Notes: generated by a model from the letters alone, not told the origin. Positions 2,294-16,380 are shown, numbered from the stretch's first letter. The stretch: DNA of 20,000 bases from an uncultured virus (IMG/VR IMGVR_UViG_3300044616_002167) (IMGVR_UViG_3300044616_002167); one strand, 5' to 3'. Numbers and translations: made by a program.

Positions 2294-3679
2294 GTGAAAA
2301 GCGTCAACCTTGTCATCTCACTGCCATTGGAGGCCTTCCGCCACGGCGTCCTCATCCTGGGCGCCCCGGGCACGGGCAAGTCCGTGCTTCTCAAGGCACT
2401 CCGTGCGAGCATCGCCACAGAAATGTCTTTGTCATCCGATGGGATAGTCGTTTGCGACTTTGACACCAAGGAGGACCTTTACGACATCGCCCGGCTTTTC
2501 CCGTCCAATGTCCCCTTCTATAATCTCGACCCATTCGTCGACGGCAACCCGTGGAATCTCGCCGGGGAAATTGATTCTCCGCTCGCAATCAAAGAGCTGG
2601 CCAACGCGCTGATCCCCAACGCAAATCAGAACCAGCCCTACTTCTCCGAGATGGCTCGTTATTCCTGGAGCCAAAACCTTTTGGGCCTCTGGCTGCGCGT
2701 CAAGGAAAAGCTCACCTTCCGGGACATGGTCCTCGCCGGGATGTCGCCTAACAATATCCGCAAGGTCGCGCGCTCAAGCAGCCTTTCCGAGAGCATTGTC
2801 CCGCTGTTTCAGGACACCGAAAGCGGCCTATCGTTGGCGGCGACTTCGGTGCACGCCATGAGCAGGTTCGCCGAGGCCGCGGCGCTCTACTCCACATCCA
2901 AGGGCGCCCCAGTCACAACACGGAGCATCCTTTCCCGGACCCGGGCCGTGGTCAGACTGCCATTCAACCTCAAGGCGGCCTACACCCTCGGGCCGTTGGC
3001 GGCGCTTTTTGCCATGATGCTTCAACTACGGGCGATGATTGAGAGCGTCAAGGGGCGGATTATAATCTTCATCTGGGATGAACTTTCGCTCATTCCGGGA
3101 GGTCTCGACCTCACCCTCAGCTCGATCTTCGGCAGAGAGGCGGGCGTGGTGAACACTTTGGCGTTCCAATCACAAGCCACCACCGCCGAAAAGTTTGGAA
3201 AGGACAAGCTGGAGGCGCTAATCTCCCTTCCGAAAACAATCATTGCCCTTCAGCAACCACATTACAAAGACGCCGAAGACACAGCGCGGAGGTTCGGAAA
3301 CTATCAGGGGTTCGTCAAGACCTGGAGCCACACCTATAGCAAGGAAAACTCCAGCACGCTCGGCGAATCCTTGCAGACCATCGAGAATGTCACGGCGTCC
3401 GACATCATGTCCCTACCGGTGCCCGCCCCGGGTCACCCCTACATTGAAGGCTTCATGGCGACCATTCCCTTCAAGCCCTTCCGATTCAAGCTCTCAATCC
3501 CGGAGCTCGTCAAAACCTATATTCCCAAGGTGGAGAGGATGGCCGAGCCCAAGGCGCGCGACCCCATGGACATGATTTTGAGACCTTGGGACGATGCGGA
3601 TCTCGACAGACTGGGCCTCCGGGAGTACTCCGGCGACGCCGAGGTTATCGCGCCGCCGGCGCCGCGGCGCGGGCGCTGA
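2294..3679 (+). CDS. Type IV secretion coupling protein (TraD/TrwB/VirD4-like ATPase), no N-terminal TM segment
   Basis: Walker A GAPGTGKS, then FDTKEDL, NLDPF, QPYFSE, Walker B IFIWDE and a TraD-C-like stretch (LAFQSQ...KDAEDTARRFG...VTASDIMSLP). Confidence 0.85.
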   Translation: MKSVNLVISLPLEAFRHGVLILGAPGTGKSVLLKALRASIATEMSLSSDGIVVCDFDTKEDLYDIARLFPSNVPFYNLDPFVDGNPWNLAGEIDSPLAIKELANALIPNANQNQPYFSEMARYSWSQNLLGLWLRVKEKLTFRDMVLAGMSPNNIRKVARSSSLSESIVPLFQDTESGLSLAATSVHAMSRFAEAAALYSTSKGAPVTTRSILSRTRAVVRLPFNLKAAYTLGPLAALFAMMLQLRAMIESVKGRIIIFIWDELSLIPGGLDLTLSSIFGREAGVVNTLAFQSQATTAEKFGKDKLEALISLPKTIIALQQPHYKDAEDTARRFGNYQGFVKTWSHTYSKENSSTLGESLQTIENVTASDIMSLPVPAPGHPYIEGFMATIPFKPFRFKLSIPELVKTYIPKVERMAEPKARDPMDMILRPWDDADLDRLGLREYSGDAEVIAPPAPRRGR

Positions 3680-4334
3680 CACCCGACTCAAGGCATTCAA
3701 ATACTATTATTTATCTGCCTGTATAGTAGCAAAACCGTTCTGGTGGCGTGACCGATTGAATTCTGCTGTCCGTCAAATAATTCGTCTAGGTCGCAATCCT
3801 CATCAATCGCATCCGTGAAAACTCCGCAAAGCACAAAGCCTTTCCCAAGAACAGAGCCGATTTTCAGCTCGGCCTCAATCCTGTCCAAGGCGTAATTCGC
3901 GCCGGCCGTGCAAACCGCCTCGATTTCCTCATCTTGTGGAGCGGCTACAACCTCGACGAAATAGGTGTCATTGTCGGTCTTGTGCTTGATCACGAAATAT
4001 TCGAGGGACCAATCATAATTCGAGAAATTTTCGGGCATGCGCGCGAAAGAAAATGACCTTTGGGTGCGCTCGGAAAACGAAACCCAAGACGGTAGCGCGT
4101 TGACGGAGTTCAATGCGACCTCCATCGCTGACCCGAAATCGATCCCGCCATACTTGACCCACTTCTCTGGCTCGGACATCGTGGTGACCTTTATGTTTCG
4201 ATGTGATTGAGCGTCGGGAAATCACACTGACCAGAGTACCGTATGGAACGGTAGAGGTAAAACTGGTGGATGAAGAGGCAGTGAAGGCGGGTCTGACAGA
4301 AGATGAGAATCCTATCCCGCGGCGCGGGCGCTGA
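3662..4334 (+). repeat. Perfect 18-bp direct repeat CCGCGGCGCGGGCGCTGA at 3662-3679 and 4317-4334, bounding an inserted cassette
   Basis: Both copies read directly from the sequence. The first copy is the last codons (PRRGR*) of the coupling-protein gene. Confidence 0.9.
3697..4179 (-). CDS. Acidic hypothetical protein (160 aa), cargo between the direct repeats
   Basis: ATG start, globular-looking composition, D/E-rich C-terminal half. No family recognised. Confidence 0.7.
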   Translation of the reverse strand: MSEPEKWVKYGGIDFGSAMEVALNSVNALPSWVSFSERTQRSFSFARMPENFSNYDWSLEYFVIKHKTDNDTYFVEVVAAPQDEEIEAVCTAGANYALDRIEAELKIGSVLGKGFVLCGVFTDAIDEDCDLDELFDGQQNSIGHATRTVLLLYRQINNSI

Positions 4335-4491
4335 AAGTCACTCCCTCGCCTGGCTTACAAACACTTTGCTTGGGGAAGTCCATCTGCCAGCGTGCCAGTC
4401 GACACGAAGGGTGGCTTAGCTACGGCGCTCCGCCGCCTACGCACGCCCTCCTTCGGTCTCCTTCTGATATTGCCGCATACGCCCCAAAATC

Positions 4492-5598
4492 CTATCCCCC
4501 AACAGGAACTGCAAGAACCCGGAAGCCGAGGATGGAGTCGCGGAGGCCTGGGCCCTGCCCGCGCCGGAGCGACGCCTTGCAGGAGTCCCCGAAGCTGAGC
4601 CTACTGCCGCCACAGAACACACGGGCCGAGCCTCTGTTGGTAGACGTCCATTCCCACACGTTACCATGCATGTCGTATATTCCCAGAGGGTTGGGGAGGT
4701 AGTTTCCCACAACGCTGGTACTTTTAAGATACGGGCCTTTTTTGCCAGAACCTGCTGGATAATTACCGTTGAAATTGGCTTGTGTGGAAGACAGATCGTT
4801 GCTGCCAACTGTCGTTAAGTCAGTCTTACTGCGGGCAAAATAGTAGTCGTACTGGCTTTGGGATTTTGAAATGGTCCCACCCCGAAGAATGTATTCCCAT
4901 TCATCAGCCGTCGGCAAGCGGTACAAAAAGCCACTTCGGCTGCTGGCAGCATTCAACTTCTGCAAAAACACTTGAACATCGTTCCACGATACACGTTCCA
5001 CAGGGTTCTTGGGATTGCCTTGAAAATGGCTCGGATTATCTCCCGTTACTGCCTGCCACTGTTCCTGCGTGACCGGGTAAATACCGCACCATAGACCTTT
5101 TTCAAGTGTGTAGGCAGTTGTACCTTCTTCGCCACCACCACCGCCCAACCAACTTTCACCAGGTGGCACCCAACCCATGGTGATATTTTGTGCTTCCGTC
5201 AGCGGCAATTCTACCCGGTCACCAATGCCCAACACCAAATCTGAAAATGGTGCCACCAAGCGGGCTTCCAATGCTGACAGCGTTTGCCATTTGGATGCAT
5301 CATGCCTCAATACCTCATCGCGCCTGAAAAAACCGCACAGCAATCGACCTTCTTCGCCGCCGTAACGCTCCACCCAATCGGCAAAAATCTGACGGTGTAC
5401 TCGTTCTTCGCAGTGAGCTCGCGCCAAACGCAACAGCTCGGTCGGGATTTCGCCTTGGAACCACTCTGGTAGTGACACGGCACACAGACTCCAATGACCA
5501 TCGCTGCGGGATTCTCCCTCTTTCAATTCGGGGACCCCGTCTCGGACGGGCCCGTTCCAATTCGCGTGGATGAAATCCCGCAGCTCCGCTAGCCGCAC
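4492..5598 (-). CDS. FGE-sulfatase/SUMF1 (CLec-fold) domain protein with N-terminal TIGR02996-like motif; candidate DGR target
   Basis: Motifs YPVTQEQW, NPSHF, PVERVSW, YRLPTADEWEY, PNPLGIYDMHGNVWEW and LGFRV. N-terminal RQIFADWVERYG...GFFR resembles the planctomycete RLxYADWL motif. Start codon uncertain. Confidence 0.88.
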   Translation of the reverse strand: MRLAELRDFIHANWNGPVRDGVPELKEGESRSDGHWSLCAVSLPEWFQGEIPTELLRLARAHCEERVHRQIFADWVERYGGEEGRLLCGFFRRDEVLRHDASKWQTLSALEARLVAPFSDLVLGIGDRVELPLTEAQNITMGWVPPGESWLGGGGGEEGTTAYTLEKGLWCGIYPVTQEQWQAVTGDNPSHFQGNPKNPVERVSWNDVQVFLQKLNAASSRSGFLYRLPTADEWEYILRGGTISKSQSQYDYYFARSKTDLTTVGSNDLSSTQANFNGNYPAGSGKKGPYLKSTSVVGNYLPNPLGIYDMHGNVWEWTSTNRGSARVFCGGSRLSFGDSCKASLRRGQGPGLRDSILGFRVLAVPVGG

Positions 5599-5668: not shown

Positions 5669-5923
5669 TCACGGCGCGCCCTTCCGGTTCAAGAACCAGT
5701 CGGGCAAGGGTTGATGGGGCGCGGGCGGGACGACCGCCCGGACCTCGTTGCGGCGGAGGTACTCCAGAAGGTGGGCCTCCGAAAAGGCGATTTTGCCGCG
5801 GCCAAGGCCGAGACGAACATGGCTGATGGCCTTGGCAGCCACCAGAGAGTAGATGGTCGCCAGGCTGACCCCCAGGGCACTTGCGGCGTTTCTGGGGCTC
5901 AAAAGGGTTTCCCTGCCGGTCAT
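5669..5923 (-). CDS. Excisionase-family (HTH_17) DNA-binding protein
   Basis: LLSPRNAASALGVSLATIYSLV...HVRLGLGRGKI winged-HTH pattern. GGAGG RBS; ATGA overlap with the upstream gene. Confidence 0.88.
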   Translation of the reverse strand: MTGRETLLSPRNAASALGVSLATIYSLVAAKAISHVRLGLGRGKIAFSEAHLLEYLRRNEVRAVVPPAPHQPLPDWFLNRKGAP

Positions 5924-6129
5924 TGGGGACCTCCTTTAAGGTGAAGGTGTTTCACAAGGAGCGCAATCACCGCCCTCTTTGGAATGAGGCGTCGGCGGCC
6001 GAGGTTGATGAAAGGCAAATTGCCCCTCCGCATAAGGTCATAAACGGCGGTGCGCGAGATGCCGAGCAGCCCGCAGGCTGCCCGGACATCCAGAACGCCG
6101 TCGCTCACCAGGAGTTCCTGGGGGGTCAT
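5920..6129 (-). CDS. Excisionase-family (HTH_17) DNA-binding protein
   Basis: VLDVRAACGLLGISRTAVYDLMRRGNLPFINLGRRRLIP. ATGA overlaps at both ends. Confidence 0.9.
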   Translation of the reverse strand: MTPQELLVSDGVLDVRAACGLLGISRTAVYDLMRRGNLPFINLGRRRLIPKRAVIALLVKHLHLKGGPQ

Positions 6130-6389
6130 GGCCGCAACCCCAGCATCGTCACGACGGTGCAGAGCTTCATGACGGTTTCAGCGCTGGCACCCTTCTTGGC
6201 TTCCAAGCCAAGGCTCGCCCTGACCTCGTCGGGAATGGGTTCCCATTCAAGCTCATAGACGAACATCAAGGCGGCAAGGTCCTCGTCGGCGAATCCCAGG
6301 ATCTTGGATAGGCTGTCGCTATCCAACCAAGAGTCTTCGCCCTCATGGATGAAGGAACGAAGCATTTGTTCTCGGGTCTGTTTTCGCAT
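6126..6389 (-). CDS. Hypothetical protein (87 aa)
   Basis: AGGAG RBS, ATG start, stop overlaps the next start. Confidence 0.7.
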   Translation of the reverse strand: MRKQTREQMLRSFIHEGEDSWLDSDSLSKILGFADEDLAALMFVYELEWEPIPDEVRASLGLEAKKGASAETVMKLCTVVTMLGLRP

Positions 6390-6394
6390 TGCTT

Positions 6395-6598
6395 TTACTC
6401 CTGTTTCTCAAGAACACCACTGAACAACGCCACATCGGGTTGGGGCTGCTGGTTGCCGGCTCTGTCGAGCAGGTCGAGCAAGCCCCGGATGGTTTCCAAA
6501 TTGGGCTGGATGCCCTCGCTGCGCGCGAGGAGATTCAGGAGCCCCATGAAGAGCGCGGCGGTTTCAGCGCCCGGGCGTTTCTGTTTTCTGGACATCAC
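6395..6598 (-). CDS. Hypothetical protein (~67 aa)
   Basis: GGAGAGGAG RBS upstream; fills the gap in the operon. Confidence 0.65.
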   Translation of the reverse strand: MMSRKQKRPGAETAALFMGLLNLLARSEGIQPNLETIRGLLDLLDRAGNQQPQPDVALFSGVLEKQE

Positions 6599-6619
6599 TC
6601 CTCTCCTTTCTGTTTGTTT

Positions 6620-7462
6620 TTACCGTGAGAAACGGACCGCTCTTGTGGGAGCCGGGTTCGGTCGACGTGTTGGGACTGCATCTACCGATGAATCGTCTCC
6701 CGGTTGCTCGAATTTAATTTCCACATCCACAGAGTTATTCCTCTGTTTCTCCTCCTTTTTGGGTTTGATGTCCCCAATAATGCCCCGAATGGCCGAGTCG
6801 ATGGCGTTGTTGTGTGATTCATATTCGGCCATCCGTGCCATGACGGTTTCAATCGCCTGAGCCGGAGCGAGAATGACTGCGGATTCCGCCAGGATCCGCT
6901 CGGTCGCCATCAGGGCCTCTGTTCGTCCTTCAAGGTCGGTTATGGCGTTTGGAAATTGGCCTGACAGGCTTTCTGGCGAGTCATCGAAGCCGATCAGACA
7001 CAGCCTCGCCTCGGCCGCTTCAAGGGCAGCATTGGCCAAGTCGAGGGATCGTTGCCAGTCCTCCATGACCTTCGGCCTGGTTGCCGAAGCTAATATTTTC
7101 ATCTGGCATTCGGTGATCTGAATAGTCAAATACTCTTTCAGGCCCTCCACGCCCACTTTGTAGTCTTTAATTGCGGAAGATGTTCTTTTCAAGAGCTGGG
7201 CCAGATCCTTGGCGCGGGCGATCTGGGTGGCGATCAGGTCCCTGGTCTGACCGATGGTTTCCGGCGCGGGTCGACCAATGGTCGGTGCGGCGTTGACCTT
7301 CAGGCTGACCCTTGTGAGCAGTTGTTTCAGGTCACTGTCGAGCTGTTCCAACGATTTCTTTGGGTGCTGCTCGATACCATCCTCGTTCGAAACTGCGTAA
7401 GTTTCTGCCTTGCCTACAAAGGCAAGTGAGACCGTTGCCAAAATTCCACATATCAAACGCAT
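6620..7462 (-). CDS. Secreted coiled-coil protein (280 aa from ATG 7462)
   Basis: GAGGAG RBS before ATG 7462. Signal peptide MRLICGILATVSLAFVGKA, long amphipathic/heptad helices, disordered C-terminal tail. Confidence 0.75.
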   Translation of the reverse strand: MRLICGILATVSLAFVGKAETYAVSNEDGIEQHPKKSLEQLDSDLKQLLTRVSLKVNAAPTIGRPAPETIGQTRDLIATQIARAKDLAQLLKRTSSAIKDYKVGVEGLKEYLTIQITECQMKILASATRPKVMEDWQRSLDLANAALEAAEARLCLIGFDDSPESLSGQFPNAITDLEGRTEALMATERILAESAVILAPAQAIETVMARMAEYESHNNAIDSAIRGIIGDIKPKKEEKQRNNSVDVEIKFEQPGDDSSVDAVPTRRPNPAPTRAVRFSR

Positions 7463-7485
7463 GACACTCTCCTCAAAATGGGGCA

Positions 7486-7851
7486 TCAGCCCCCGACATC
7501 GAACCAATCCGAGGCGGCCTGTTCCGCCTCATCATGGTCCGTGGCTTGTGGACCGCCGCGCCAGCGAGTGACTCTCCACTCGCGGCGCTGACGGGTGTAA
7601 AACGTGATTCCGATAAAAATGAAAGCGACGCCAAGCCACCCGATCGCCCACCTGGTGTTGGGGTCTTGTTCTCCGGCGCTTACAGCCGCTCCAAAAATCA
7701 GGATGCCGCCTACCAGAATGGGGGAGAACCACCAAAGGGATCCGAATAGCGTTGCGAAGGCGCCAACACCTTTGGCCAACCCGCTGTACTGCGGATCGAT
7801 GGCGTCCGCAGAAAACGACAGCAGTAGTCCGAGAGGGAAGACCAGCATCAT
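7486..7851 (-). CDS. Small multi-pass membrane protein (121 aa)
   Basis: ATG 7851 overlaps the upstream stop (ATGA). 3-4 hydrophobic segments followed by a basic tail. Confidence 0.75.
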   Translation of the reverse strand: MMLVFPLGLLLSFSADAIDPQYSGLAKGVGAFATLFGSLWWFSPILVGGILIFGAAVSAGEQDPNTRWAIGWLGVAFIFIGITFYTRQRREWRVTRWRGGPQATDHDEAEQAASDWFDVGG

Positions 7852-8231
7852 GGTCGGCCCTCCGTCAGGGCGGCTCGCCCAGCCGCGATGACCAGAGGAG
7901 TGACCCAGAAGATGCTCGGGCAGGTCACCACGGCCTTGGCCATTGTGGCCAGGAGATGGTCGAGAGATTGGGGGCTGCGCAGGTCGGGTGTGCACGCAGC
8001 GGCTGCGATAAGTACCAAAGCCGCGGGGAGGCCCACGGTCTTGGTGTAAAAGGTGGCGACACTCTCATCGGGATCGCTCGGAAACAGCAGAGTCGCCATG
8101 GCAACGATGAGTGAGATTGGCAGTGAAACCATTCCGCCGGTCACGGCGTGGGTTCCCCAGGCGATCAACACCACCCCGCCCGACTGGGCCAGGGTCTTGA
8201 GAAACACTTGATTCGCTGCTTTCCTGCTCAT
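7848..8231 (-). CDS. Small multi-pass membrane protein (127 aa)
   Basis: About 4 hydrophobic segments; ATGA overlaps at both ends. Confidence 0.75.
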   Translation of the reverse strand: MSRKAANQVFLKTLAQSGGVVLIAWGTHAVTGGMVSLPISLIVAMATLLFPSDPDESVATFYTKTVGLPAALVLIAAAACTPDLRSPQSLDHLLATMAKAVVTCPSIFWVTPLVIAAGRAALTEGRP

Positions 8232-9961
8232 CGCCTGACCCCCTGGCGTTGGGACTGCTGCTGGCGGCGGATTTCGACATCCGTCAGTTGCGAGAGGCGC
8301 AGCGCGTTGCCGGTGGCGAGAATGCAGTGCGCCCCTGTCTTGGCGGCTTTTTTCACAAGGCGTTCAGTGCACCTGGACTCCATGCTTTGGGGAGAAATCA
8401 GGAGGATATCGCCACGGCGCAAAGCGTTTGCGGGCTTTGCCCTCCTGATGAATCCCGCCCGGCCGAGAAGGTCGTTGCCAAATCCCCCCTCCCGGATAGC
8501 TCGGGCGAAGGCCTGAATGTGGCTGGCGCGTTGGGTGGACTCAAGAAAGGTCGTCGCGCTGATGGGGGCGGGGAGTCCGGAGTCGGCGCAGAGCTTTTTG
8601 TCCAGCGCGATGGTGTAGACGGCTCGACCTCGTTTGGTGGCAATGTTCGCCGCGTCCAGATGGGCTTTGTCGAGTGAGCCCGAGATGGTCACCCGATTTG
8701 CGAGAGCATTCCGAAGGTTTGTCACCTCCCTGTCATCGAGATCGCTGCCCGCCGTGGCCTCGATGACCCTCTCTGGCCTCACCTTGCTGGCTTGCCGGGT
8801 GAGCATGGCGAGGGTGCTCACAAGGCGCTTTTCGTTCGCAGCCTCCTTGGTGTTTTCAAACAGTGCATTTTTGTCGGCATATTGCTTGACCTTTTCTAGC
8901 CCGATTCGCGCGAGAAACGTTGTGTTCCTTGCCAAAAACCTGACCGCCGCGGCGGCTTTCTTAGGCGTAATGTCTGGACACACGATTTGCCTGGTGGTGG
9001 CGTTGATCTGCCAAAGGGTTGTCTGGAACTGGCCGGAACGGGCGTGGTAGTAAAACGCCAGCTTGGCCGCCTTGACCGCCGCGATTCTCTTGAGCCGCTT
9101 GTCAGCCCGGCTCAGAAAGTTGACGGCGCGGGCCAGCAGGGTTGGCTCAGTGATCTTGTAGTCGATCGCCTCCATCGCCTTTTCAAAGGTTGGCATCTCC
9201 TTCGCCTTGAACTTGGCCTGGCGGGTGGCTTGGGCCGCGGCCCTCCTTGCCTTGGCGGAGACGATCTTGCGCCCGGTCTTCTTTTCGATGGCCTTGGTTC
9301 GTTCGGTTTTCGCCACCTCGATGCCAGCGGCCTTGAGGCCTGTCGTTCCTGTTGGTTCCGAGTTGATTTTGAAGCGTTCCCAGACCTCCCTGGCGATGGT
9401 CGCCGAGGCAAAGCTCTTCAATTCGGTCTGGGCCTTCATCAAGTGCCTTGTGGACACAGCGCGGATCTTGCCGTCCTTGGTCTTGCCGCTTGATTTAAAA
9501 ACGATATTTATAGTTAGTCCTGCCGCTTTATCCCGGTTAAGGTACCCTAGTGTGACGCAGTAGGGTGCTTCTAGAAGCTGTTCCAAACGATTCTCAGCAC
9601 CCCTTCTTGCAAAAAAATGCTTAGCCGTTTCCATGGCGAACTTGTGACCCACTGCTAGGGCGAACTTGCTGATGGCCTCCTTGTGTGCGCCCATTGCGTT
9701 GATCGCGGCCACCGTCTCCATGGGCACAGAAGCGGTGAGCTCCAACAGGTCAGCGCTTTTGGCTTTTCGCTTCAGGTCGTAACTTTCCCACCACATTTCC
9801 CTGGCGGGGTAGGACCCCTTGAACAACTCCTCCCCGGTTACTCCGTTAAAAACGACCGCCATCCGGGCGTCGCGAACCAGGATATCCTCAGGCCGGTTGT
9901 AGGTCGTCCAGCCCTTGAGTGTCCTGTGGGCGACCCGGGATGACGCAATGAACGCGCTCAC
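8228..9961 (-). CDS. Divergent TrwC/MOBF relaxase-helicase homologue with degenerate catalytic motifs
   Basis: LELTASVP ~ DLTFSAPK; GYLNRDKAAGLTINIVF ~ HxTSRxxDPxLHTH; DGKIRAV; TERTKAIE ~ FSxRxxxIE; ATRQAK ~ TRxxK. C-terminal AAA_30-like scaffold (GRAVYTIA, GDILLISPQSM, GAHCILATG). GTG 9961 has a GGAGG RBS and overlaps the kinase stop (ORF track starts at 9976). Confidence 0.72.
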   Translation of the reverse strand: MSAFIASSRVAHRTLKGWTTYNRPEDILVRDARMAVVFNGVTGEELFKGSYPAREMWWESYDLKRKAKSADLLELTASVPMETVAAINAMGAHKEAISKFALAVGHKFAMETAKHFFARRGAENRLEQLLEAPYCVTLGYLNRDKAAGLTINIVFKSSGKTKDGKIRAVSTRHLMKAQTELKSFASATIAREVWERFKINSEPTGTTGLKAAGIEVAKTERTKAIEKKTGRKIVSAKARRAAAQATRQAKFKAKEMPTFEKAMEAIDYKITEPTLLARAVNFLSRADKRLKRIAAVKAAKLAFYYHARSGQFQTTLWQINATTRQIVCPDITPKKAAAAVRFLARNTTFLARIGLEKVKQYADKNALFENTKEAANEKRLVSTLAMLTRQASKVRPERVIEATAGSDLDDREVTNLRNALANRVTISGSLDKAHLDAANIATKRGRAVYTIALDKKLCADSGLPAPISATTFLESTQRASHIQAFARAIREGGFGNDLLGRAGFIRRAKPANALRRGDILLISPQSMESRCTERLVKKAAKTGAHCILATGNALRLSQLTDVEIRRQQQSQRQGVRR

Positions 9962-11184
9962 TGTTGGTCCCTCCACAGCCTTAATGGAATGTTTGGCTGA
10001 TATTTCGGCCTTCTCCTAAAGGAAGGCTCCGGCGAATGCCACAGGCCAACCGCCGTTGTAGGTTCGTTTTTGACGACAGTTTGCGGTGGGTTTTCATGCT
10101 GGGTTGACAGAATCGAGACCGAAACCCTTTCAGTCGCAAACGTCGGTACCGCCGGAATTGTCCACCTGAAATGGGCGGTGTTTTGAAAAATCGAAAATGC
10201 AAGTGTCATCGCCGCGCCGACGGTTAGGCACGCGAACTTCCTTCGTCTTGCAGATCTTCCGGCGACCTTGCAGCGGGTTGATAACCCAATGACCAATCCC
10301 CTCCAGTTGATGAAAGCTCGCTTAGGACTCGGCGCCATGCCCAATGCCGTTTCCCACATGGCAAGCGTCGGCCGCCTGCCGGCTGGCCCGGTGATCGCCT
10401 GCTCGAGGTAGGAGCGGATGACCGGTGGAAGGCTGTCGAACTGTCTCCGGACTTCAGAGTTCGGTTCCACGCCGAATATGGATAGCTTTCCGGCCTCAAT
10501 CAGGTCAGCTGGAGCTCCGGGTTCGCCATGGTCAAGTGTGCTCCCGCCGGTGAATACCTTGAACAAAAGGCATGCCAGCGCCCCGGCCGCTTGGTCCTCC
10601 CCCCAGGTGTGAATAGAGCCGCTCCTGAACTCAACGATGCATTCTCTTGGCAAAAAATCTGGCATGACCACCGCGCTGGCGGGAATTGGGCGGTGGTTCA
10701 CGGTGAATCCACATCCCGCGGCGACATCGATCCGTTGGACTCCTGTGACTTTGCCGAAGGATGTGGCGAAGAGATAGTTGGCCGGGTTGTGATCGACGAC
10801 TGCGATGTCCGCCTTCTGGATCGTGATGAATAAATCGACCAGACATTTTGCGATTGCGAACCGCTGGGAGTCGAAATCGATCTTCAACCGCGCCCGTTCG
10901 CTTGGCAGGAAGAAGTTCTCCAAGGAGTGGTGCCCTACGATCTCCGGCATCGTCCACCCGACCGCCTGTCCGCAGTCAAAGAGGATGGCCCTTGGCAGGG
11001 CGACATTCGGGATGGTGAGTGCGGTGAGAGCCTCCACCACGGCGATACGGTCGGCGGAAGGCTCCTCGATGCAGATGGCGGCAAGAACGCCCGGAGATAC
11101 TCTGTAGATCTCACTCTCCGCGCCTCCCTTGCCCAGTGGCGTGAGAGGTACCGGGGAGCCGGATGCGGTCTGAACAACTTTCAT
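9958..11184 (-). CDS. TerY-triad-type Ser/Thr kinase-like protein with C-terminal TM segment; probable pseudokinase
   Basis: Gly loop LGKGGAESEIY, VALP..ILFD...GWTMP, catalytic loop VDHNPANYL, RID, PDFLPRE, ALACLLFKVFTGG and RRPT. Ala at the expected beta3 Lys (VLAAIC). Hydrophobic FACLTVGAAMTLAFSIF. Confidence 0.8.
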   Translation of the reverse strand: MKVVQTASGSPVPLTPLGKGGAESEIYRVSPGVLAAICIEEPSADRIAVVEALTALTIPNVALPRAILFDCGQAVGWTMPEIVGHHSLENFFLPSERARLKIDFDSQRFAIAKCLVDLFITIQKADIAVVDHNPANYLFATSFGKVTGVQRIDVAAGCGFTVNHRPIPASAVVMPDFLPRECIVEFRSGSIHTWGEDQAAGALACLLFKVFTGGSTLDHGEPGAPADLIEAGKLSIFGVEPNSEVRRQFDSLPPVIRSYLEQAITGPAGRRPTLAMWETALGMAPSPKRAFINWRGLVIGLSTRCKVAGRSARRRKFACLTVGAAMTLAFSIFQNTAHFRWTIPAVPTFATERVSVSILSTQHENPPQTVVKNEPTTAVGLWHSPEPSFRRRPKYQPNIPLRLWRDQQ

Positions 11185-11954
11185 CGCCCGGCCCCCCGAA
11201 GCTTCCTCGATATCGCTGCGGTCGCGATGTCCTTGAGGCTCCCTGGGCGGCTAACCGAGCTGGAAAGCGATCTTCCAAGGATTGAAAAAAGTTCGGACAA
11301 GGGGACCAGGTTGGCGGGAACGGGAGGAGTGTTGGAGATCATCCCCGCCATGTTGCGGTCAAAGGCGCCTACCATCGCGGAAATGACGGTGATATCGCGG
11401 GCGATGAAGTCGATGTGATTCTGGAGTTCCCCAGGTTGAAAAGGCGTACAATTTTGAAAATCGGATACGATCAGCCAGAGAGAGTCGAAATGCCTCACCC
11501 GCTGTTGACTGCAATGCTCTCTGAATTTGAGGGAGTCATGGCGCAACGCCGACAAAAGGCGCGGGACATTGGTTCCCGGGAGGCTTGGCGGTCTTTGAGG
11601 TACAACGAACTTACCAGCAGCAGCTCCGATGAGTTCGACATTTTCGGCCCAGGTGTAGCTGAGACAGAAAATGCACTCCTTTGCCAGCGGATTTTCCGCA
11701 AGGCTAACCTCCATCGGTGCGATTGCCGCCTGGAGTTCCTTGAAGTAACCGCCGAGGCTCCCTGACTCGTCTACCGCTAAAGCGACTTGTTGGTAGGGCA
11801 TGGACCCCCTTTGCGCGGGAGTCATGATTGCCTTGGCCTGCTCTGCGAGAACAAGCCCTCCCGGAATCACCAACTTGTCATCCATCGGCATCGGCATTAG
11901 GTTGGTGACGCTGGGCGGATTGGTGCCGCCGTTGTTGGAGAACAGGTTGCGCAT
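11181..11954 (-). CDS. TerY-like von Willebrand factor A domain protein (257 aa from ATG 11954)
   Basis: MIDAS VALAVDESGSL, then LAENPLAKE, PGTN and WLIVSD. GGAG RBS before ATG 11954; the longer ORF-track start overlaps the divergent gene. Confidence 0.82.
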   Translation of the reverse strand: MRNLFSNNGGTNPPSVTNLMPMPMDDKLVIPGGLVLAEQAKAIMTPAQRGSMPYQQVALAVDESGSLGGYFKELQAAIAPMEVSLAENPLAKECIFCLSYTWAENVELIGAAAGKFVVPQRPPSLPGTNVPRLLSALRHDSLKFREHCSQQRVRHFDSLWLIVSDFQNCTPFQPGELQNHIDFIARDITVISAMVGAFDRNMAGMISNTPPVPANLVPLSELFSILGRSLSSSVSRPGSLKDIATAAISRKLRGAGR

Positions 11955-12070
11955 GAACGGGCTCCCGATTGGGCGTGTTGTGGGGAATACCGACGCGGGA
12001 AAAGCGTCGATAAGCAACGGTACCCTTCGGGAAAACCGATTTACAATGGCATCCCTTGAGGAGTGCAAAA

Positions 12071-12121
12071 ATAGTTCTAAATGGTTCCGAATGGCGATGA
12101 TTCCGAACCATTCCGAACCAT
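12071..12121. promoter_or_regulatory. Candidate operator: two tandem 10-mers facing two inverted 10-mers in the divergent intergenic region
   Basis: ATAGTTCTAA-ATGGTTCCGA (12071-12090) and TTCCGAACCA x2 (12101-12120). ATGGTTCCGAAT vs ATTCCGAACCAT is an inverted repeat with 1 mismatch. Confidence 0.55.
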
Positions 12122-12190
12122 CTTTCACTTCGACCAAATCGCTGGCGGCCGGCGGTATATTGTCAGTGGAGCCAATTGGAGGTGAAGCAG

Positions 12191-12715
12191 ATGCCGGCAA
12201 AACGAAACGACACACTGCAAGATCGCGAAGAGGCCTGGAGCCGGATCAATTTGATTTGGGACAAGGTTTTTCCAATGGGCAGCATCAAGTTTCTTGCAAA
12301 CGACATCTCCCCGTCCCAATACAAGAAGATTTCGGCTTATCACCCCGTTGGAAAGGACGTGATGGTCAAGGTGGCCAACATCCTTGGTGTGCCGGTTCGG
12401 GAAATTGATCCGCAGAGGAGGAAGGAGTGGACGAGAGACATCGACTCGGTGATTCAAGACGCGATGGAAACGAAGGGCTCCGGGGGTGGCTTGATGTTGA
12501 TGAATTCCTCGGTTGAGGTCGCCAACCTCATTTTCCAGGCGCTTGAAATGATTTATGTCAAAAGAAGTGCAATAATTAACGAAGCCATTGCCGAAATGGT
12601 TACCTCCCGGGAGGAGTATGCCGCGATGGCGATCACCCAGCTACTGATGGGAAACAAAAAATTCTTTGAGGATGCCGAAGAGGAGGGGGATGGCGCACAG
12701 GAATTGCCATGGTAA
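12191..12715 (+). CDS. Putative XRE-like HTH transcriptional regulator
   Basis: GGAGGTG RBS before ATG 12191. ISPSQYKKI...VMVKVANILGVPVREI matches the XRE helix 4-5 pattern. Divergent from the vWA operon. Confidence 0.65.
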   Translation: MPAKRNDTLQDREEAWSRINLIWDKVFPMGSIKFLANDISPSQYKKISAYHPVGKDVMVKVANILGVPVREIDPQRRKEWTRDIDSVIQDAMETKGSGGGLMLMNSSVEVANLIFQALEMIYVKRSAIINEAIAEMVTSREEYAAMAITQLLMGNKKFFEDAEEEGDGAQELPW

Positions 12716-12742
12716 CCCCAAACTCGTCCAATCGCCTTCACT

Positions 12743-12774
12743 ACCACCGGTCAAACCTGGTGGTTTTTCTTTTT
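12743..12774 (+). terminator. Rho-independent terminator after the HTH gene
   Basis: ACCACCGG-TCAAA-CC(T)GGTGGT hairpin followed by TTTTCTTTTT. Confidence 0.65.
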
Positions 12775-13052
12775 ATAGCCATAGATATTTTAAGATTGGC
12801 ATCCAAGTCTTAATTCTAATCATTGATGTCGGGCCAGTCCCGGGAAGGTTTTTCAATCCGACCTTACCCTGCGAAGAGGGTATTTATAAGATGATGGCTG
12901 GTTGAATTTTCTTGTCCCTGAATTGTCCCCATCAGTGTCCCCAACACGGGCTAAAATAGTGGGGACAATTCGCAAATGGTGGAGCATGAAGGAGGATTTT
13001 CAGCAAAGAAAAGGTGTTTAAACAAGGCCTTTTAGTGCAACTTATGGATTAA

Positions 13053-13125
13053 GCGCCCGTAGCTCAGGGGATAGAGCATCGGTTTCCTAAGCCGTGGGTC
13101 GTTGGTTCAATCTTTGCCGGGTGTA
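13053..13125 (+). tRNA. tRNA-Arg(CCT)-like sequence, probably a pseudo-tRNA/att core
   Basis: GCGCCCG-TA-GCTC..GAGC D arm and anticodon loop TTCCTAA (CCT at 13086-13088). The 3' half pairs poorly: TCGGT/GCCGT, T-stem GTTGG/TTTGC, two G-T pairs in the acceptor stem, no encoded CCA. Confidence 0.8.
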
Positions 13126-13140
13126 ATAAATAGGGTCTCT

Positions 13141-13172
13141 TAGGGGCAAGCTGGGCTTGCCCCTATTTTTTT
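13141..13172 (+). terminator. Rho-independent terminator downstream of the tRNA
   Basis: Perfect 11-bp stem TAGGGGCAAGC-TGG-GCTTGCCCCTA followed by T7. Confidence 0.85.
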
Positions 13173-13357
13173 AGTGTATTTAATCAACTATCGACGGCCT
13201 TTCTGCGCCTTTTGGCGCAGTTTGGGGACAGGTTTGGGGACGGGAAAAGGGCTGGTTGTCCCCGATTTTGTCCCCGATAGCATCCGAAAATGGGACAAAA
13301 AAACCGCATCCGTTGGAAGTAGCCCTCGGCCAGCGTGAGTCCTTTGGAGGTGTTCAA

Positions 13358-14587
13358 ATGGCGCGCGGCAGAAAAAAGTCGGCGCAAGGGGAGCCGCGCC
13401 AACGGAAGCCGTTCTTCAAGAAATCCCACGACTGCTGGTATGTGCATCAAGACGGAAAGATGGTCCGGCTTGCAAAAGATAGGGACGAGGCATTTAGAAA
13501 ATGGGAAGACCTTCGCCTCCAACGGCGTCTTGAGGAGGAGGGCAGGGCAGAGAGGGAAGCCGCCGGGATCACGCTGGTGAACATGGCCCAAGAGTTCTTC
13601 ACCATGCACTTCAGGGGCAAGAGCGAGAAGACTCTGCAATTTCACAAGGAGAAGATCGTTCCGCTTTGCCGCGAGCTGGGGGCCGATTTCCTCGCCGCCT
13701 CGCTGACGGTTCTCCACATCAACGAGTGGATCGCCAAGCATCCCGCATGGTCGACCGGCACCGCCCGGACCGTGTGGCAGGCCGTCAAGGCGCTGTGCTC
13801 CTGGGGGTATGTCAACGAGAGGATTCCGCGCCTGCGCCTGCTGGAGCACCGCAAGCCCGCGGCCAACCGCCGAGAGGTGGTCATCTCGCCGGAGGAGTAC
13901 GAAAGGATCCGGGCTGCCGTCGTCAGCGAAGAATTCAAGGCACTTTTGGACATGGCTTGGGAAACCGGAGCTCGCCCGCAGGAGCTCTGGAAAATGCAGG
14001 TTTCCCACTGCGATTTCGAGCGGAAGCTTATCGTTTTCAAAGCCTCGGAGTCCAAGGGCAAGAAGCGGCCGCGCGTCATCTTCCTCGAGCCCGGCAACGG
14101 GCTGGAGATCGCCCAACGCCAGGCGGAGCTCTACGGGACCGGGCACCTGTTCCGCAACACGGAGGGGAATCCTTGGACGCCGGGAACCAGCAACCTTGCA
14201 TTTCAGCGTTTAAGGAGAAAAATAGCGGCGGAGAGAATGCCGGAGCCCACCGAGAAGGATATCACAACCTTTCTGGCCAAGGTCTCGCCCACGGTGAAAG
14301 AGGCCGGCGTGGAAAGGCTGAAGACGGAGGCGGAAAGGATTGCCCAGGCCAAGCTCAAGTTCAGGGCCTCCGCCGCCAAAAAACTCGCTCCCAAATATTG
14401 CCTTTATCATTTTCGCCACAGTTGGCTGGACCGGAGGATCAAGCAGGGTGTCGGAATCTTCGAGGCGGCGAAGCTGATGGGTCACGCGGACGCTAGCATG
14501 ATAATCCGCCACTATGAGCATCTTTCGCAAAGTCCTGAATTTCTTAGGGCGGCGCTGATGAAAGCTACCGGAGGGGGGAATCCATGA
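13358..14587 (+). CDS. int: Tyrosine recombinase/phage integrase (409 aa from ATG 13358)
   Basis: Catalytic R (TGARPQE), K (KGKKR), HxxR (YHFRH), H (LMGH) and Y (HYEH). N-terminal arm-binding-like KPFFKKSHDCWYV. GGAGGTG RBS; adjacent to the tRNA. Confidence 0.95.
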   Translation: MARGRKKSAQGEPRQRKPFFKKSHDCWYVHQDGKMVRLAKDRDEAFRKWEDLRLQRRLEEEGRAEREAAGITLVNMAQEFFTMHFRGKSEKTLQFHKEKIVPLCRELGADFLAASLTVLHINEWIAKHPAWSTGTARTVWQAVKALCSWGYVNERIPRLRLLEHRKPAANRREVVISPEEYERIRAAVVSEEFKALLDMAWETGARPQELWKMQVSHCDFERKLIVFKASESKGKKRPRVIFLEPGNGLEIAQRQAELYGTGHLFRNTEGNPWTPGTSNLAFQRLRRKIAAERMPEPTEKDITTFLAKVSPTVKEAGVERLKTEAERIAQAKLKFRASAAKKLAPKYCLYHFRHSWLDRRIKQGVGIFEAAKLMGHADASMIIRHYEHLSQSPEFLRAALMKATGGGNP

Positions 14588-15497: not shown

Positions 15498-16238
15498 TCA
15501 GACCGCTAGCGCGGCGCCCATCAGCAGCCCGTTGAGCCGCATGGATCGCCGCGAATACTGGAACGGGTCGCCGCTCACCTCCGGGGCCGACATCGGCCGG
15601 GTGAAGGCGTTCTGCAAGGTCCAGAAGGACCGCTTCGAGAACTGCGGGATCGCCAGGCTGCGCCACCGTTCGAGGACGGGGCCGACCTGGCGGATCGTGA
15701 TGACATCCTGCTCGTAGGCCCTCAGGATGAGAGCCTCCGCCAGAGTTTCCGGCACCTCTTTCTGCTCCAGATACCGAATCCTTTCGGACTCGCTTTGCTG
15801 GAATAGGTTGAGGGTCGAGACGGCGAGCTGGATCCCTTCCGAGAACCGCTCCGCCCCGTGCCGGGTATGCTTCTTGGCGACGACAACATCGCTGACAAAC
15901 GACAGATTGTCGCAGACAAGGCAGTGAGAACCGGCGCAAAAGCCGATGGGAAAACTTTTGTCATAGGAGTTCCTCACACCGACCATGAGCATGGTCTCAT
16001 CACCTATCGCAGACCCCAGGGTGAGCACCCCGAAGAAACGGTTGTTGCTTCGGGAGACCGCATAGGACTCTTGCGAGACCTTGAACCCGGCGCCCGTCAG
16101 GATCTCCTTGGTTTCCATGACCACATCGCTGTGCGCCACGGGAAACCACCTGCCCTTTGGCTCCGGCGGTCTCATCTCCGCAATCTCGTCGAGGCCCGCC
16201 TGTCGGGAGCCCCGCATCATCAAAACCTCTCCAGCCAT
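15498..16238 (-). CDS. DUF932-family protein (plasmid/phage mobile-element protein)
   Basis: WFPVAH, RFFGVL, VGVRNSYDKS, LVCDNLSF, KKHT and WTLQNAFT motifs. Likely start ATG 16238. Confidence 0.85.
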   Translation of the reverse strand: MAGEVLMMRGSRQAGLDEIAEMRPPEPKGRWFPVAHSDVVMETKEILTGAGFKVSQESYAVSRSNNRFFGVLTLGSAIGDETMLMVGVRNSYDKSFPIGFCAGSHCLVCDNLSFVSDVVVAKKHTRHGAERFSEGIQLAVSTLNLFQQSESERIRYLEQKEVPETLAEALILRAYEQDVITIRQVGPVLERWRSLAIPQFSKRSFWTLQNAFTRPMSAPEVSGDPFQYSRRSMRLNGLLMGAALAV

Positions 16239-16380
16239 GGCCTTATGACCCTCGGTCGAGGGGCGGCCGTGGAAAGAACCTTCCACTGGAACGCCAACCC
16301 CTCAAAGGTTTGAAGGGTCGTGCATGAAATCTTCTACCCGCGGCGGAGGCTTGCACGATTCCGCAGGATGATCAAGGGAA

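Follow-up and report, generated by a model that had tools for sequence, protein, structure and literature searches.

A stretch of 20,000 nucleotides from an uncultured virus (IMG/VR IMGVR_UViG_3300044616_002167), the whole of which is hereafter called the window, carries on its minus strand, from position 11954 down to 5669, ten co-oriented open reading frames (ORFs) headed by genes for a von Willebrand factor A (vWA) protein resembling TerY, a protein-kinase-like protein and a TrwC/TraI-like relaxase-helicase protein. Our analyses lead us to propose, tentatively and with not quite even confidence, that in freshwater Gemmataceae this operon makes up the mobility core of a rare element, integrative and plasmid-like, together with a TrwB/TraD-type coupling ATPase (2294-3679), the excisionase (Xis)-type helix-turn-helix (HTH) proteins and a tyrosine integrase, in which the TrwC-like protein would be a non-nicking DNA adaptor for the coupling ATPase and the complex of the vWA protein with the putative pseudokinase would be a membrane regulator. 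The proposal builds on observed folds, motif losses, synteny, purifying selection and element context. The genes concerned are listed below, with coordinates counted from the first letter of the window.

11181..11954, minus strand: TerY-like vWA protein, 257 amino acids (aa), with an intact metal ion-dependent adhesion site (MIDAS) (fold searches and alignments)
9958..11184, minus strand: protein-kinase-like protein, 408 aa, without the beta-3 lysine, with a C-terminal hydrophobic stretch and tail
8228..9961, minus strand: protein with a TrwC/TraI-like relaxase fold and a RecD2-like domain, 577 aa, without the histidine triad and Walker A/B motifs
7848..8231, minus strand: small membrane protein, 127 aa (hydropathy, weak alignment to relatives)
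7486..7851, minus strand: second small membrane protein, 121 aa (hydropathy, position)
6620..7507, minus strand: 295-aa protein whose N-terminus carries a hydrophobic signal or anchor and whose body is mostly polar (hydropathy)
6395..6598, minus strand: small ORF, 67 aa, no family assigned (GC content at third codon positions, GC3, 0.75)
6126..6389, minus strand: small ORF, 87 aa, no family assigned
5920..6129, minus strand: excisionase-type HTH protein, 69 aa (HTH_17 and TIGR01764)
5669..5923, minus strand: excisionase-type HTH protein, 84 aa (HTH_17 and TIGR01764)
2294..3679, plus strand: TrwB/TraD-type coupling ATPase, 461 aa, without membrane domain (Pfam matches)

A first reading of this DNA from its letters alone (the sequence-only reading) had described ten intact co-oriented ORFs with six 4-bp start/stop overlaps, and all of them were present on the minus strand. 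The overlaps read ATGA at 11181-84, 8228-31, 7848-51, 6126-29 and 5920-23 and GTGA at 9958-61, and in the operon ORFs listed GC3 exceeded the GC content at first and second codon positions. That reading had also treated the operon as a free-standing unit, a view that had to be abandoned, as the operon is better seen as the core of an integrative element whose partner ATPase, at 2294-3679, lies outside the range then considered. The Pfam scan reported here covered 17 window proteins, and the NCBIfam and PADLOC libraries were also used.

Related loci were sought with a four-sequence TrwC-like sub-alignment, since the nine-sequence set was too divergent. This sub-alignment returned two loci, both in metagenome-assembled genomes titled Gemmataceae bacterium, and a profile search of 252 Gemmataceae genomes located full-length, stop-free TrwC-like sequences at six places in five genomes, one of which has two copies (loci L001, L002, L019, L020, L021 and L022; host genomes G001, G002, G457, G459 and G646). 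Within a 401-genome sample of the phylum the single full-length TrwC-like match was the centre genome itself. Single-protein TrwC-like scans of genome and metagenome contigs yielded no locus, a further metagenome scan returned only a 2760-base contig (L023) identical to window 11013-13772, and neither the operon DNA nor the kinase nor the TrwC-like protein was matched in the PLSDB plasmid collection. Additionally, a stretch of the tRNA region of the window was near-identical in lake-water metagenomes (18 runs in which half or more of the sampled words were present, four being possible sources). The module is rare, and its distribution among Gemmataceae genomes is patchy.

The kinase homologue, the TrwC-like gene and the coupling ATPase occur together in five of the six loci (L002, L019, L020, L021 and L022), and L001 begins at the TrwC-like gene. 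Gene order in the five loci is kinase, TrwC-like gene, membrane protein of 123-157 aa and TrwB-type ATPase, and the vWA gene lies upstream of the kinase in all eight loci that include that DNA; the synteny check suggested by the sequence-only reading thus showed the order of vWA, kinase, TrwC-like and membrane protein genes to be conserved in related Gemmataceae loci. In the relatives the ATPase is followed by a protein of 256-375 aa that bears a signal, by small ORFs and by an HTH_17 gene, and beside the module there are genes for MT-A70, DUF5131, an RPA replication initiator, ParA and an ECF sigma factor, as well as a tyrosine integrase and Xis. Since the module is the block that these elements share and element genes surround it, the operon is interpreted as the conserved core of integrative plasmid-like elements. 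L020 and L022 are 88% identical over the module and 69-70% identical in the flanks. A weaker tier of the kinase family, mostly of longer proteins, was present in 64 of the 252 genomes, and among the ten best kinase-family matches in these genomes nine adjoin a TrwC or TrwC-like match, the tenth being on a short contig.

The relaxase-like character of the 577-aa protein was recognised by its fold. Its model, made with 14 sequences (pLDDT, for predicted local distance difference test, 79.0), matched in Foldseek searches the full-length F/R1 TraI (5n8o, E 9e-10), TrwC (1zm5, E 5.3e-09, target template modelling (TM) score 0.65) and RecD2 (3e1s, E 1e-06), and the trans-esterase domains of TrwC and pKM101 TraI were matched with target TM scores of 0.63-0.67. 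The family profile also found TrwC in the PDB (1omh, E 1.9e-10), and the single sequence gave chance-level matches only in the same database. Direct scores remained under the family cut-offs, with 18.6 bits for PF08751 (TrwC; cut-off 25) and 19.8 bits for the NCBIfam MobF model NF041492 (cut-off 100), and PF08751 was matched at E <= 1 by 5 of 9 family members. Identities within the family range from 21 to 78%; for the window protein a word-based search returned one other cluster among 5.8 billion clusters, and nine representatives at E <= 0.001 were obtained among 1.84 billion.

Key catalytic residues of this fold are missing from the family. The columns of the histidine triad, placed by what we take to be the residue numbers of TrwC, are occupied by G139, T150 and N152 in the window protein; no histidine was present at these columns in any of the eight aligned family sequences or in the family profile aligned to TrwC, and H...HxH is kept in two canonical Gemmataceae TrwC proteins of the same alignment. 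Besides, neither GxxxxGK[ST] (Walker A) nor hhhhDE was seen by eye at the expected places of the alignment, and AAA_30, which three canonical proteins matched, had no match in the window protein. Other positions are conserved: each of the 14 family sequences has a polar residue (N, D, S or T) in the last histidine column, R143, beside the former metal site, is invariant in the family and common to canonical TrwC in the alignment, and the N-terminal Y21 is nearly invariant. As to the relation of Y21 to the TrwC tyrosines, the profile match begins only at position 46 and the multiple alignment misplaces the N-termini. The TrwC/TraI fold, without histidine triad and Walker A/B motifs, agrees with the relaxase-helicase lacking key catalytic residues that had been proposed from the sequence alone.

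Neither the vWA protein nor the kinase-like protein had a match in Pfam (Pkinase included for the latter), NCBIfam or PADLOC, and in protein-language searches they were assigned to VWA clusters (0.94) and Pkinase clusters (0.97), respectively. An AlphaFold2 model of the vWA protein, made with six homologues (pLDDT 78.1), had vWA domains as its top matches in the PDB (best E 2.8e-08; 336 matches at E <= 0.001), and a search of the PDB by sequence with the vWA profile found no vWA chain. The MIDAS (DxSxS...T...D) is considered intact because neither alignment shows variation at D62, S64 and T128, S66 does not vary among the six derived sequences, and D165 is constant in the alignment of seven sequences, which adds two canonical-module proteins; with this fold and site the TerY-like vWA assignment of the sequence-only reading was borne out. 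At the N-termini of the vWA proteins in L019, L020 and L022, reading by eye revealed an RGRPxGSKNK stretch that we presume to be AT-hook-like, which hints that the vWA protein touches DNA in some elements; the stretch is missing from the window vWA protein.

For the kinase-like protein the cluster search returned two close relatives, and a relative at 74% identity carries the source name 'protein with protein kinase domain'. With a profile built from eight homologues the matches were weak (E 0.02-1.4), nearly all of them to protein kinases, and they span the part of the catalytic core that takes in the catalytic loop and the DFG and APE regions. D131 and D153 show no variation, and seven of eight sequences have N136. 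The beta-3 lysine column holds A36 in the window protein, and the lysine is found in none of the six derived kinases (A, G or L there) versus both canonical-module kinases. The protein is therefore a plausible pseudokinase by its residues; the missing lysine upholds this part of the sequence-only reading, but the catalytic-loop Asp and Asn and the DFG-like Asp are kept, so that calling the enzyme dead goes beyond what was established. The C-terminal hydrophobic stretch falls under the hydropathy threshold for a segment.

The prediction of a complex between the vWA and kinase-like proteins supports binding, with a score of 0.69 versus 0.00 for the best of three controls; of 157 solved complexes 116 reach this mark, as do 2 of 215 mismatched pairs, counts that apply roughly because self-made alignments were used. 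The runs share at least 96% of their contacts, the pLDDT of the partner is at least 82, and the predicted interface takes in the glycine loop and the catalytic loop of the kinase. Contigs of some lake-water runs contain same-length, strongly diverged patches at window 10378-10459, in the kinase gene, and at 8320-8463, in the region for the C-terminal domain of the TrwC-like protein, which suggests local hypervariability between strains.

The coupling ATPase matched TrwB_AAD_bind (PF10412, E 5.3e-17, 62.2 bits, cut-off 20.5) and TraG-D_C (PF12696, E 1.6e-09, 38.2 bits, cut-off 22), and it keeps Walker A, from about residue 23, and hhhhDE (Walker B). Hydropathy revealed no hydrophobic segment in it, the N-terminal transmembrane anchor being absent. 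The window gene is 38-42% identical to the gene adjoining the TrwC-like gene in all six related loci, in five of which it lies on the same strand as the module, and the place of the coupling-protein gene in relatives is occupied in the window by the second small membrane protein (7486-7851). An exact 18-base direct repeat (3662-3679 and 4317-4334) brackets a 160-aa ORF; the copy at 3662-3679 forms the 3' terminus of the coupling-ATPase gene, and the repeat may be a footprint of the rearrangement that displaced this gene.

Hydropathy analysis found three hydrophobic segments in the 7848-8231 protein, two in the 7486-7851 protein and one, N-terminal, in the 6620-7507 protein, in line with the membrane and secreted proteins anticipated from the sequence alone. 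The 7848-8231 protein aligns weakly with proteins of 123-157 aa at the same position in five loci and corresponds in place to the gene that relatives have between the genes for the TrwC-like and coupling proteins. The 6620-7507 protein also aligns weakly, at 16-23% identity, with the 256-375 aa proteins that follow the coupling protein in five loci, and relatives have ORFs of 63-64 aa at a position similar to that of ORF 6395-6598. The twin Xis-like HTH proteins likewise withstood closer analysis, as both pass the HTH_17 and TIGR01764 cut-offs: the 5920-6129 protein with E 3.4e-11 and 43.7 bits (cut-off 27) for HTH_17 and 37 bits (cut-off 28.8) for TIGR01764, and the 5669-5923 protein with E 9.6e-09 for HTH_17 and 31 bits for TIGR01764. 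By BLAST the latter has homologues, at 37-43% identity, downstream of the module in four of the six related loci. The MADS defence system was considered and rejected, the only PADLOC matches being two weak and generic ones, of the coupling ATPase to mad8 and of HTH1 to mad1.

Canonical counterparts of the module were found at two further Gemmataceae loci (L027 and L028), in the order vWA, kinase with beta-3 lysine, protein of 98-108 aa, TrwC with AAA_30, coupling protein and signal-bearing protein, and the vWA protein of L027 matched Pfam VWA at E 1.3e-08. Canonical coupling proteins in Gemmataceae have 529-672 aa (529-536 aa in L027 and L028) and N-terminal extensions. PF08751 was matched in all five host genomes, up to seven times per genome with the derived copies included, and canonical TrwC genes co-reside in four of the five. 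The existence of this canonical sister module in Gemmataceae indicates that the window family is a derived, stripped form of a local module, and we therefore regard the family as what appears to be a stable, catalytically stripped derivative of an ordinary MOBF module and not decay. The sequence-only reading had named close homologues with canonical motifs as a sign of a simple decaying element; distant Gemmataceae modules do keep all of these motifs, which speaks for MOBF descent and not for decay. Moreover, the kinase of the canonical module finds VWA-PP2C-kinase triads on plasmids at 26-30% identity, for example on a Sinorhizobium meliloti plasmid; the vWA/kinase pair is thus of the TerY-P kind, as had been supposed, and the front end can be described as a TerY-P derivative without the phosphatase.

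Selection was estimated by the ratio of nonsynonymous to synonymous substitution rates (dN/dS) on L020 versus L022, the least saturated pair (dS 0.2-0.7), the loci used being Gemmataceae more distant than the 65-78% relatives P0002, P0004 and P0005. The ratio was 0.18 for the kinase gene, 0.10 for the TrwC-like gene, 0.11 for the small membrane protein gene, 0.09 for the coupling-ATPase gene and 0.15 for the gene after the ATPase, and the TrwC-like gene has no internal stop at any of its six places. With 0.10 versus 0.09, the stripped relaxase is as constrained as the intact ATPase. The operon genes thus appear intact and under purifying selection despite the lost catalytic residues, and the claim of selection instead of decay, made originally from one sequence, now extends to a pattern maintained across 21-78% identity, with dN/dS of 0.10 for the TrwC-like gene and 0.18 for the kinase gene.

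The features around the operon that bear on its element context are the following.

13256..14587, plus strand: tyrosine integrase, 443 aa (Phage_integrase, E 1.1e-12)
13053..13125, plus strand: tRNA-Arg(CCT) (tRNA/Rfam scan)
12924..13275, no strand: cluster of TGTCCCC/GGGGACA heptamers around the tRNA, candidate recombinase arm sites
12176..12715, plus strand: divergent upstream gene, 179 aa, no significant family match
12067..12125, no strand: direct as well as inverted repeats (ATTCCGAACC units) in the intergenic stretch upstream of the vWA gene (repeat scan)
3697..5598, minus strand: probable cargo downstream of the operon, comprising an FGE-sulfatase-domain protein (4492-5598) and a 160-aa ORF (3697-4179)

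The window integrase is 44% identical to the integrase beside a tRNA-Arg(ACG) at the end of the L019 element, and the trio of recombinase, tRNA and excisionase is present both in L019 and in the window, here as the integrase, the tRNA-Arg and the two excisionase-family HTH proteins. The heptamer TGTCCCC/GGGGACA has ten copies in the window, six of them within 350 bases, three on each side of the tRNA; an 8-mer of this cluster has six window matches versus 1.04 expected, and the cluster holds a perfect 12-base inverted repeat (12920-12931 and 12960-12971). The heptamers look like candidate recombinase arm sites flanking a core, in an attP-like layout, and their place on both sides of the tRNA hints at a tRNA enclosed in an attP-like site and at a single element to which both the integrase and the operon would belong. 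The acceptor stem of the tRNA-Arg(CCT), read by eye, ends in two G-U pairs, as though element sequence had taken the place of its 3' end. In four runs, metagenome contigs extend over the window at even depth and break at the tRNA, where many unrelated contigs pile up (depth about 800-1100); these breaks would fit either an attP-like internal site or a chromosomal junction.

Upstream of the vWA gene, the intergenic stretch 12067-12125 contains a 14-base inverted repeat (93% complementarity) as well as two tandem ATTCCGAACC units and one inverted copy, and is a candidate operator or transfer-origin-like site. The divergent gene that the sequence-only reading had placed upstream is present at 12176-12715, but its assignment as an HTH gene was not confirmed by Pfam or NCBIfam. 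A 344-aa vWA form starting at 12215 would overlap this gene and was rejected, the form on record having 257 aa. Scanning for promoters and terminators gave chance-level numbers (4 versus 3.4 expected, and 15 versus 12.6), and the Rfam scan of the window returned nothing beyond the tRNA. The cargo region 3697-5598 has no counterpart in related loci; at its margins the window also includes a type I restriction R subunit cut by the window start (1-2199) and a weak DUF932 match (15498-16286), and these two, like the FGE-sulfatase protein, are likely cargo or further mobile-element genes.

Taken together, these results suggest a course of events for the proposed mobility core. The ancestral module would have encoded, besides a TerY-like vWA protein and a Ser/Thr kinase, a small accessory protein, an unreduced MOBF relaxase-helicase, a coupling protein that had its membrane domain, and a secreted protein. 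The relaxase-helicase would then have shrunk to about 575 aa with the loss of its metal-binding histidines and ATPase motifs, the kinase would have lost its ATP-anchoring lysine, the small accessory protein would have disappeared from the window lineage, and the coupling ATPase would have become separated from a small membrane protein. In the present element, the TrwC-like protein may recognise element DNA through its relaxase fold and pass it to the coupling ATPase as a non-nicking adaptor; for nicking and unwinding the element would depend on canonical MOBF elements resident in the same host and acting in trans, or do without them. The vWA protein and the kinase-like protein would form a membrane-tethered complex that gates or scaffolds the apparatus, and not one for phosphorylation signalling.

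Several observations weigh against this interpretation. The coupling-ATPase gene of the window is inverted and 4.5 kb off and the integrase lies on the far side of the tRNA, in both respects unlike all relatives. No att repeat that would define the element ends was found, either in the window, where neither tRNA half is repeated and no convincing direct-repeat family was seen, or within 60 kb of the tRNA in the G646 region. In G646 the sole TrwC match is the derived gene, which leaves no canonical helper, and VirB4 (PF03135) was matched in none of the five genomes of relatives (a control search found it in one of 14 named genomes; PF03135 was the only VirB4-like family covered), so that no known channel is at hand. 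The near-invariant Y21 would be unexpected for a purely non-catalytic adaptor. The vWA gene of L020 (12052-12914 in G457, which has two module copies) is frameshifted near residue 160, the rest being intact, and more distant pairs (dS > 0.8) gave unreliable dN/dS estimates of 0.13-1.07, with a rise to 0.5-1.07 where the distant pairs are saturated. Relatives (L019-L022 and L002) carry variable defence-like cargo, with caspase-Sel1, TIR/SEFIR and CHAT-TPR genes, and TerY-P-like modules are reported as defence systems in passages of a published study (PMC11090510). Transfer, excision and DNA binding are predicted activities of the element.

A role in interference or defence, in which the inert relaxase look-alike and the pseudokinase/vWA complex would sense or sequester incoming DNA or rival MOBF relaxosomes and act by exclusion, decoy or abortive response instead of own transfer, is unlikely but deserves serious consideration. 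The many canonical MOBF elements in the hosts, with up to seven TrwC matches, would offer targets for a dominant-negative homologue, the window holds a type I restriction R subunit just as relatives hold caspase, TIR and CHAT genes, and parts of the same study describe TerY-P-like modules as stand-alone antiphage systems and partners of FtsK/VirB4-like ATPases (PMC11090510). However, none of the vWA, kinase, TrwC-like and membrane proteins had a PADLOC match, and the mad8 and mad1 matches of the coupling ATPase and HTH1 are far weaker than the TrwB_AAD_bind match. The module is constant across elements, as the contrast between module and flanks in L020 and L022 also illustrates, whereas the caspase-Sel1, CHAT-TPR, TIR/SEFIR, MT-A70 and DUF5131 genes beside it are variable defence-like or phage-like cargo. 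Moreover, the same vWA-kinase front end heads the canonical counterpart, whose relaxase is complete, and this links the pair to DNA transfer rather than defence. The conjugation decoy, exclusion or defence function raised by the sequence-only reading is accordingly possible, but it is less supported than a role in the mobility of the element itself.

It is decidedly unlikely, in our view, that the operon encodes a Gemmataceae DNA-transfer apparatus that works without type IV secretion, made of the TrwB-type ATPase with membrane and secreted proteins and gated by the vWA/kinase pair, in which the relaxase-helicase would be a non-catalytic DNA-recognition subunit or a nickase free of the histidine triad and DNA would move without classical HUH nicking. 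Quite improbable, too, is an autonomous relaxase, with the TrwC-like protein cleaving through its N-terminal tyrosine without the histidine triad, by other metal ligands or in a metal-independent way through conserved Arg/Lys, and the element mobilising itself. The nearly invariant Y21, the invariant R143 shared with canonical TrwC, the polar last histidine column in all 14 family sequences, the strong selection and the one host genome without a canonical helper would suit such an enzyme; on the other hand, all three metal ligands are replaced with no conserved alternative set, the helicase motifs for MOBF unwinding are also gone, and Y21 is not reliably alignable with the TrwC tyrosines.

A protein-export device under vWA/kinase control, made of the ATPase, membrane and signal-bearing proteins with the TrwC-like protein as substrate or chaperone, would be analogous to TerY-P-linked FtsK/WXG100 operons, and we consider it very improbable. 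The signal-bearing protein always follows the ATPase, VirB4 (PF03135) was not found in the host genomes, and TerY-P triads are reported beside FtsK/EssC-like secretion ATPases in passages of two studies (PMC4978471; PMC11090510), but the ATPase here matches the DNA-coupling families TrwB_AAD_bind and TraG-D_C, its partner has a relaxase-helicase fold, and in the canonical version the MOBF relaxase is complete. That the genes are what decay has left of an ordinary element, conjugative or mobilisable, as the catalytic residues gone from two enzymes, the rearranged coupling gene of the window and the frameshifted L020 vWA gene might suggest, is hardly credible given the same losses across a family diverged to 21-25% identity, the stop-free TrwC-like gene at all six places, dN/dS of 0.09-0.18, the preserved translational coupling and the near-identical copies in many lake-water runs (18, four of them possible sources).

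The favoured interpretation, a mobility core built on a stripped MOBF module, bears on how planctomycetes exchange genes. Conjugation between planctomycetes is so far not reported, according to passages of a preprint (10.1101/2024.01.22.576637), and planctomycete chromosomes hold many pairs of MOBF and coupling-protein genes with no recognisable channel. What our results add is that a subset of these pairs is headed by a TerY-like vWA/kinase pair, and that one lineage appears to keep the module under purifying selection after loss of the metal site, the ATPase motifs and the kinase lysine. The 'live' and 'stripped' modules in the same genomes provide a natural comparable pair for asking what the module does, and through this pair the control of FtsK/HerA-superfamily ATPases by TerY-type vWA/kinase proteins and the role of a non-cutting relaxase fold are open to study. 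Additionally, the element is common in lake-water metagenomes and therefore bears on gene flow in freshwater planctomycetes.

Compared with the MOBF relaxase-helicases (TrwC of R388, TraI of F/R1 and of pKM101), the window protein is alike in having a trans-esterase fold followed by a RecD2-like domain, and its gene family likewise adjoins the coupling-protein gene. It differs in length, with about 575 aa versus 829-1175 aa in the canonical Gemmataceae proteins, in the absence of the histidine triad, Walker A/B and AAA_30, and in scoring under the family cut-offs. The coupling ATPase resembles the type IV coupling proteins (TrwB, TraD, VirD4) in TrwB_AAD_bind, TraG-D_C and Walker A/B; unlike them it has no N-terminal membrane domain, and a separate small membrane protein is encoded upstream in relatives.

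The TerY-P triad, for which Anantharaman et al. 2012 is said to be the original paper, likewise has a vWA gene with intact MIDAS directly upstream of a kinase-like gene. The window operon differs from it in lacking a PP2C gene, with no PP2C match among the 17 window proteins or the module genes of relatives, in lacking PADLOC matches, and in a kinase without the beta-3 lysine. Where the TerY-P kinase has a zinc ribbon or an OB fold the window kinase has a C-terminal hydrophobic stretch, and its vWA/kinase pair is joined to a relaxase/coupling-protein module. TerY-like vWA genes beside FtsK/HerA-superfamily ATPases are on record in parts of two studies (PMC11090510; PMC4978471).

The closest setting is that of the chromosomal MOBF relaxases of Planctomycetes, which according to passages of the preprint often occur with a coupling protein and without a complete mating-pair system (10.1101/2024.01.22.576637). 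The window module shares with those pairs the phylum, the pairing itself, the lack of a mating-pair system and the RPA-type genes in integrated elements, and the survey, its supplementary tables aside, mentions neither a vWA/kinase front end nor a relaxase without catalytic residues (10.1101/2024.01.22.576637). In the literature searched, again with the supplementary tables of that preprint aside, neither a vWA-kinase-relaxase-coupling-protein operon nor a relaxase family lacking the histidine triad was described. We do not file the operon as a plain member of any of these systems because the histidine triad, the PP2C gene and the membrane anchor were each looked for and are each absent.

A further comparison can be made with Streptomyces TraB, where one FtsK/HerA-superfamily ATPase and small membrane proteins move DNA without a nickase or type IV secretion, and the FtsK-like TraB recognises double-stranded clt repeats by itself. 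Conjugation of this type would fit a non-nicking module, and the resemblance is put forward as functional speculation, since the window ATPase differs in being TrwB-like and in being paired with a relaxase-fold protein.

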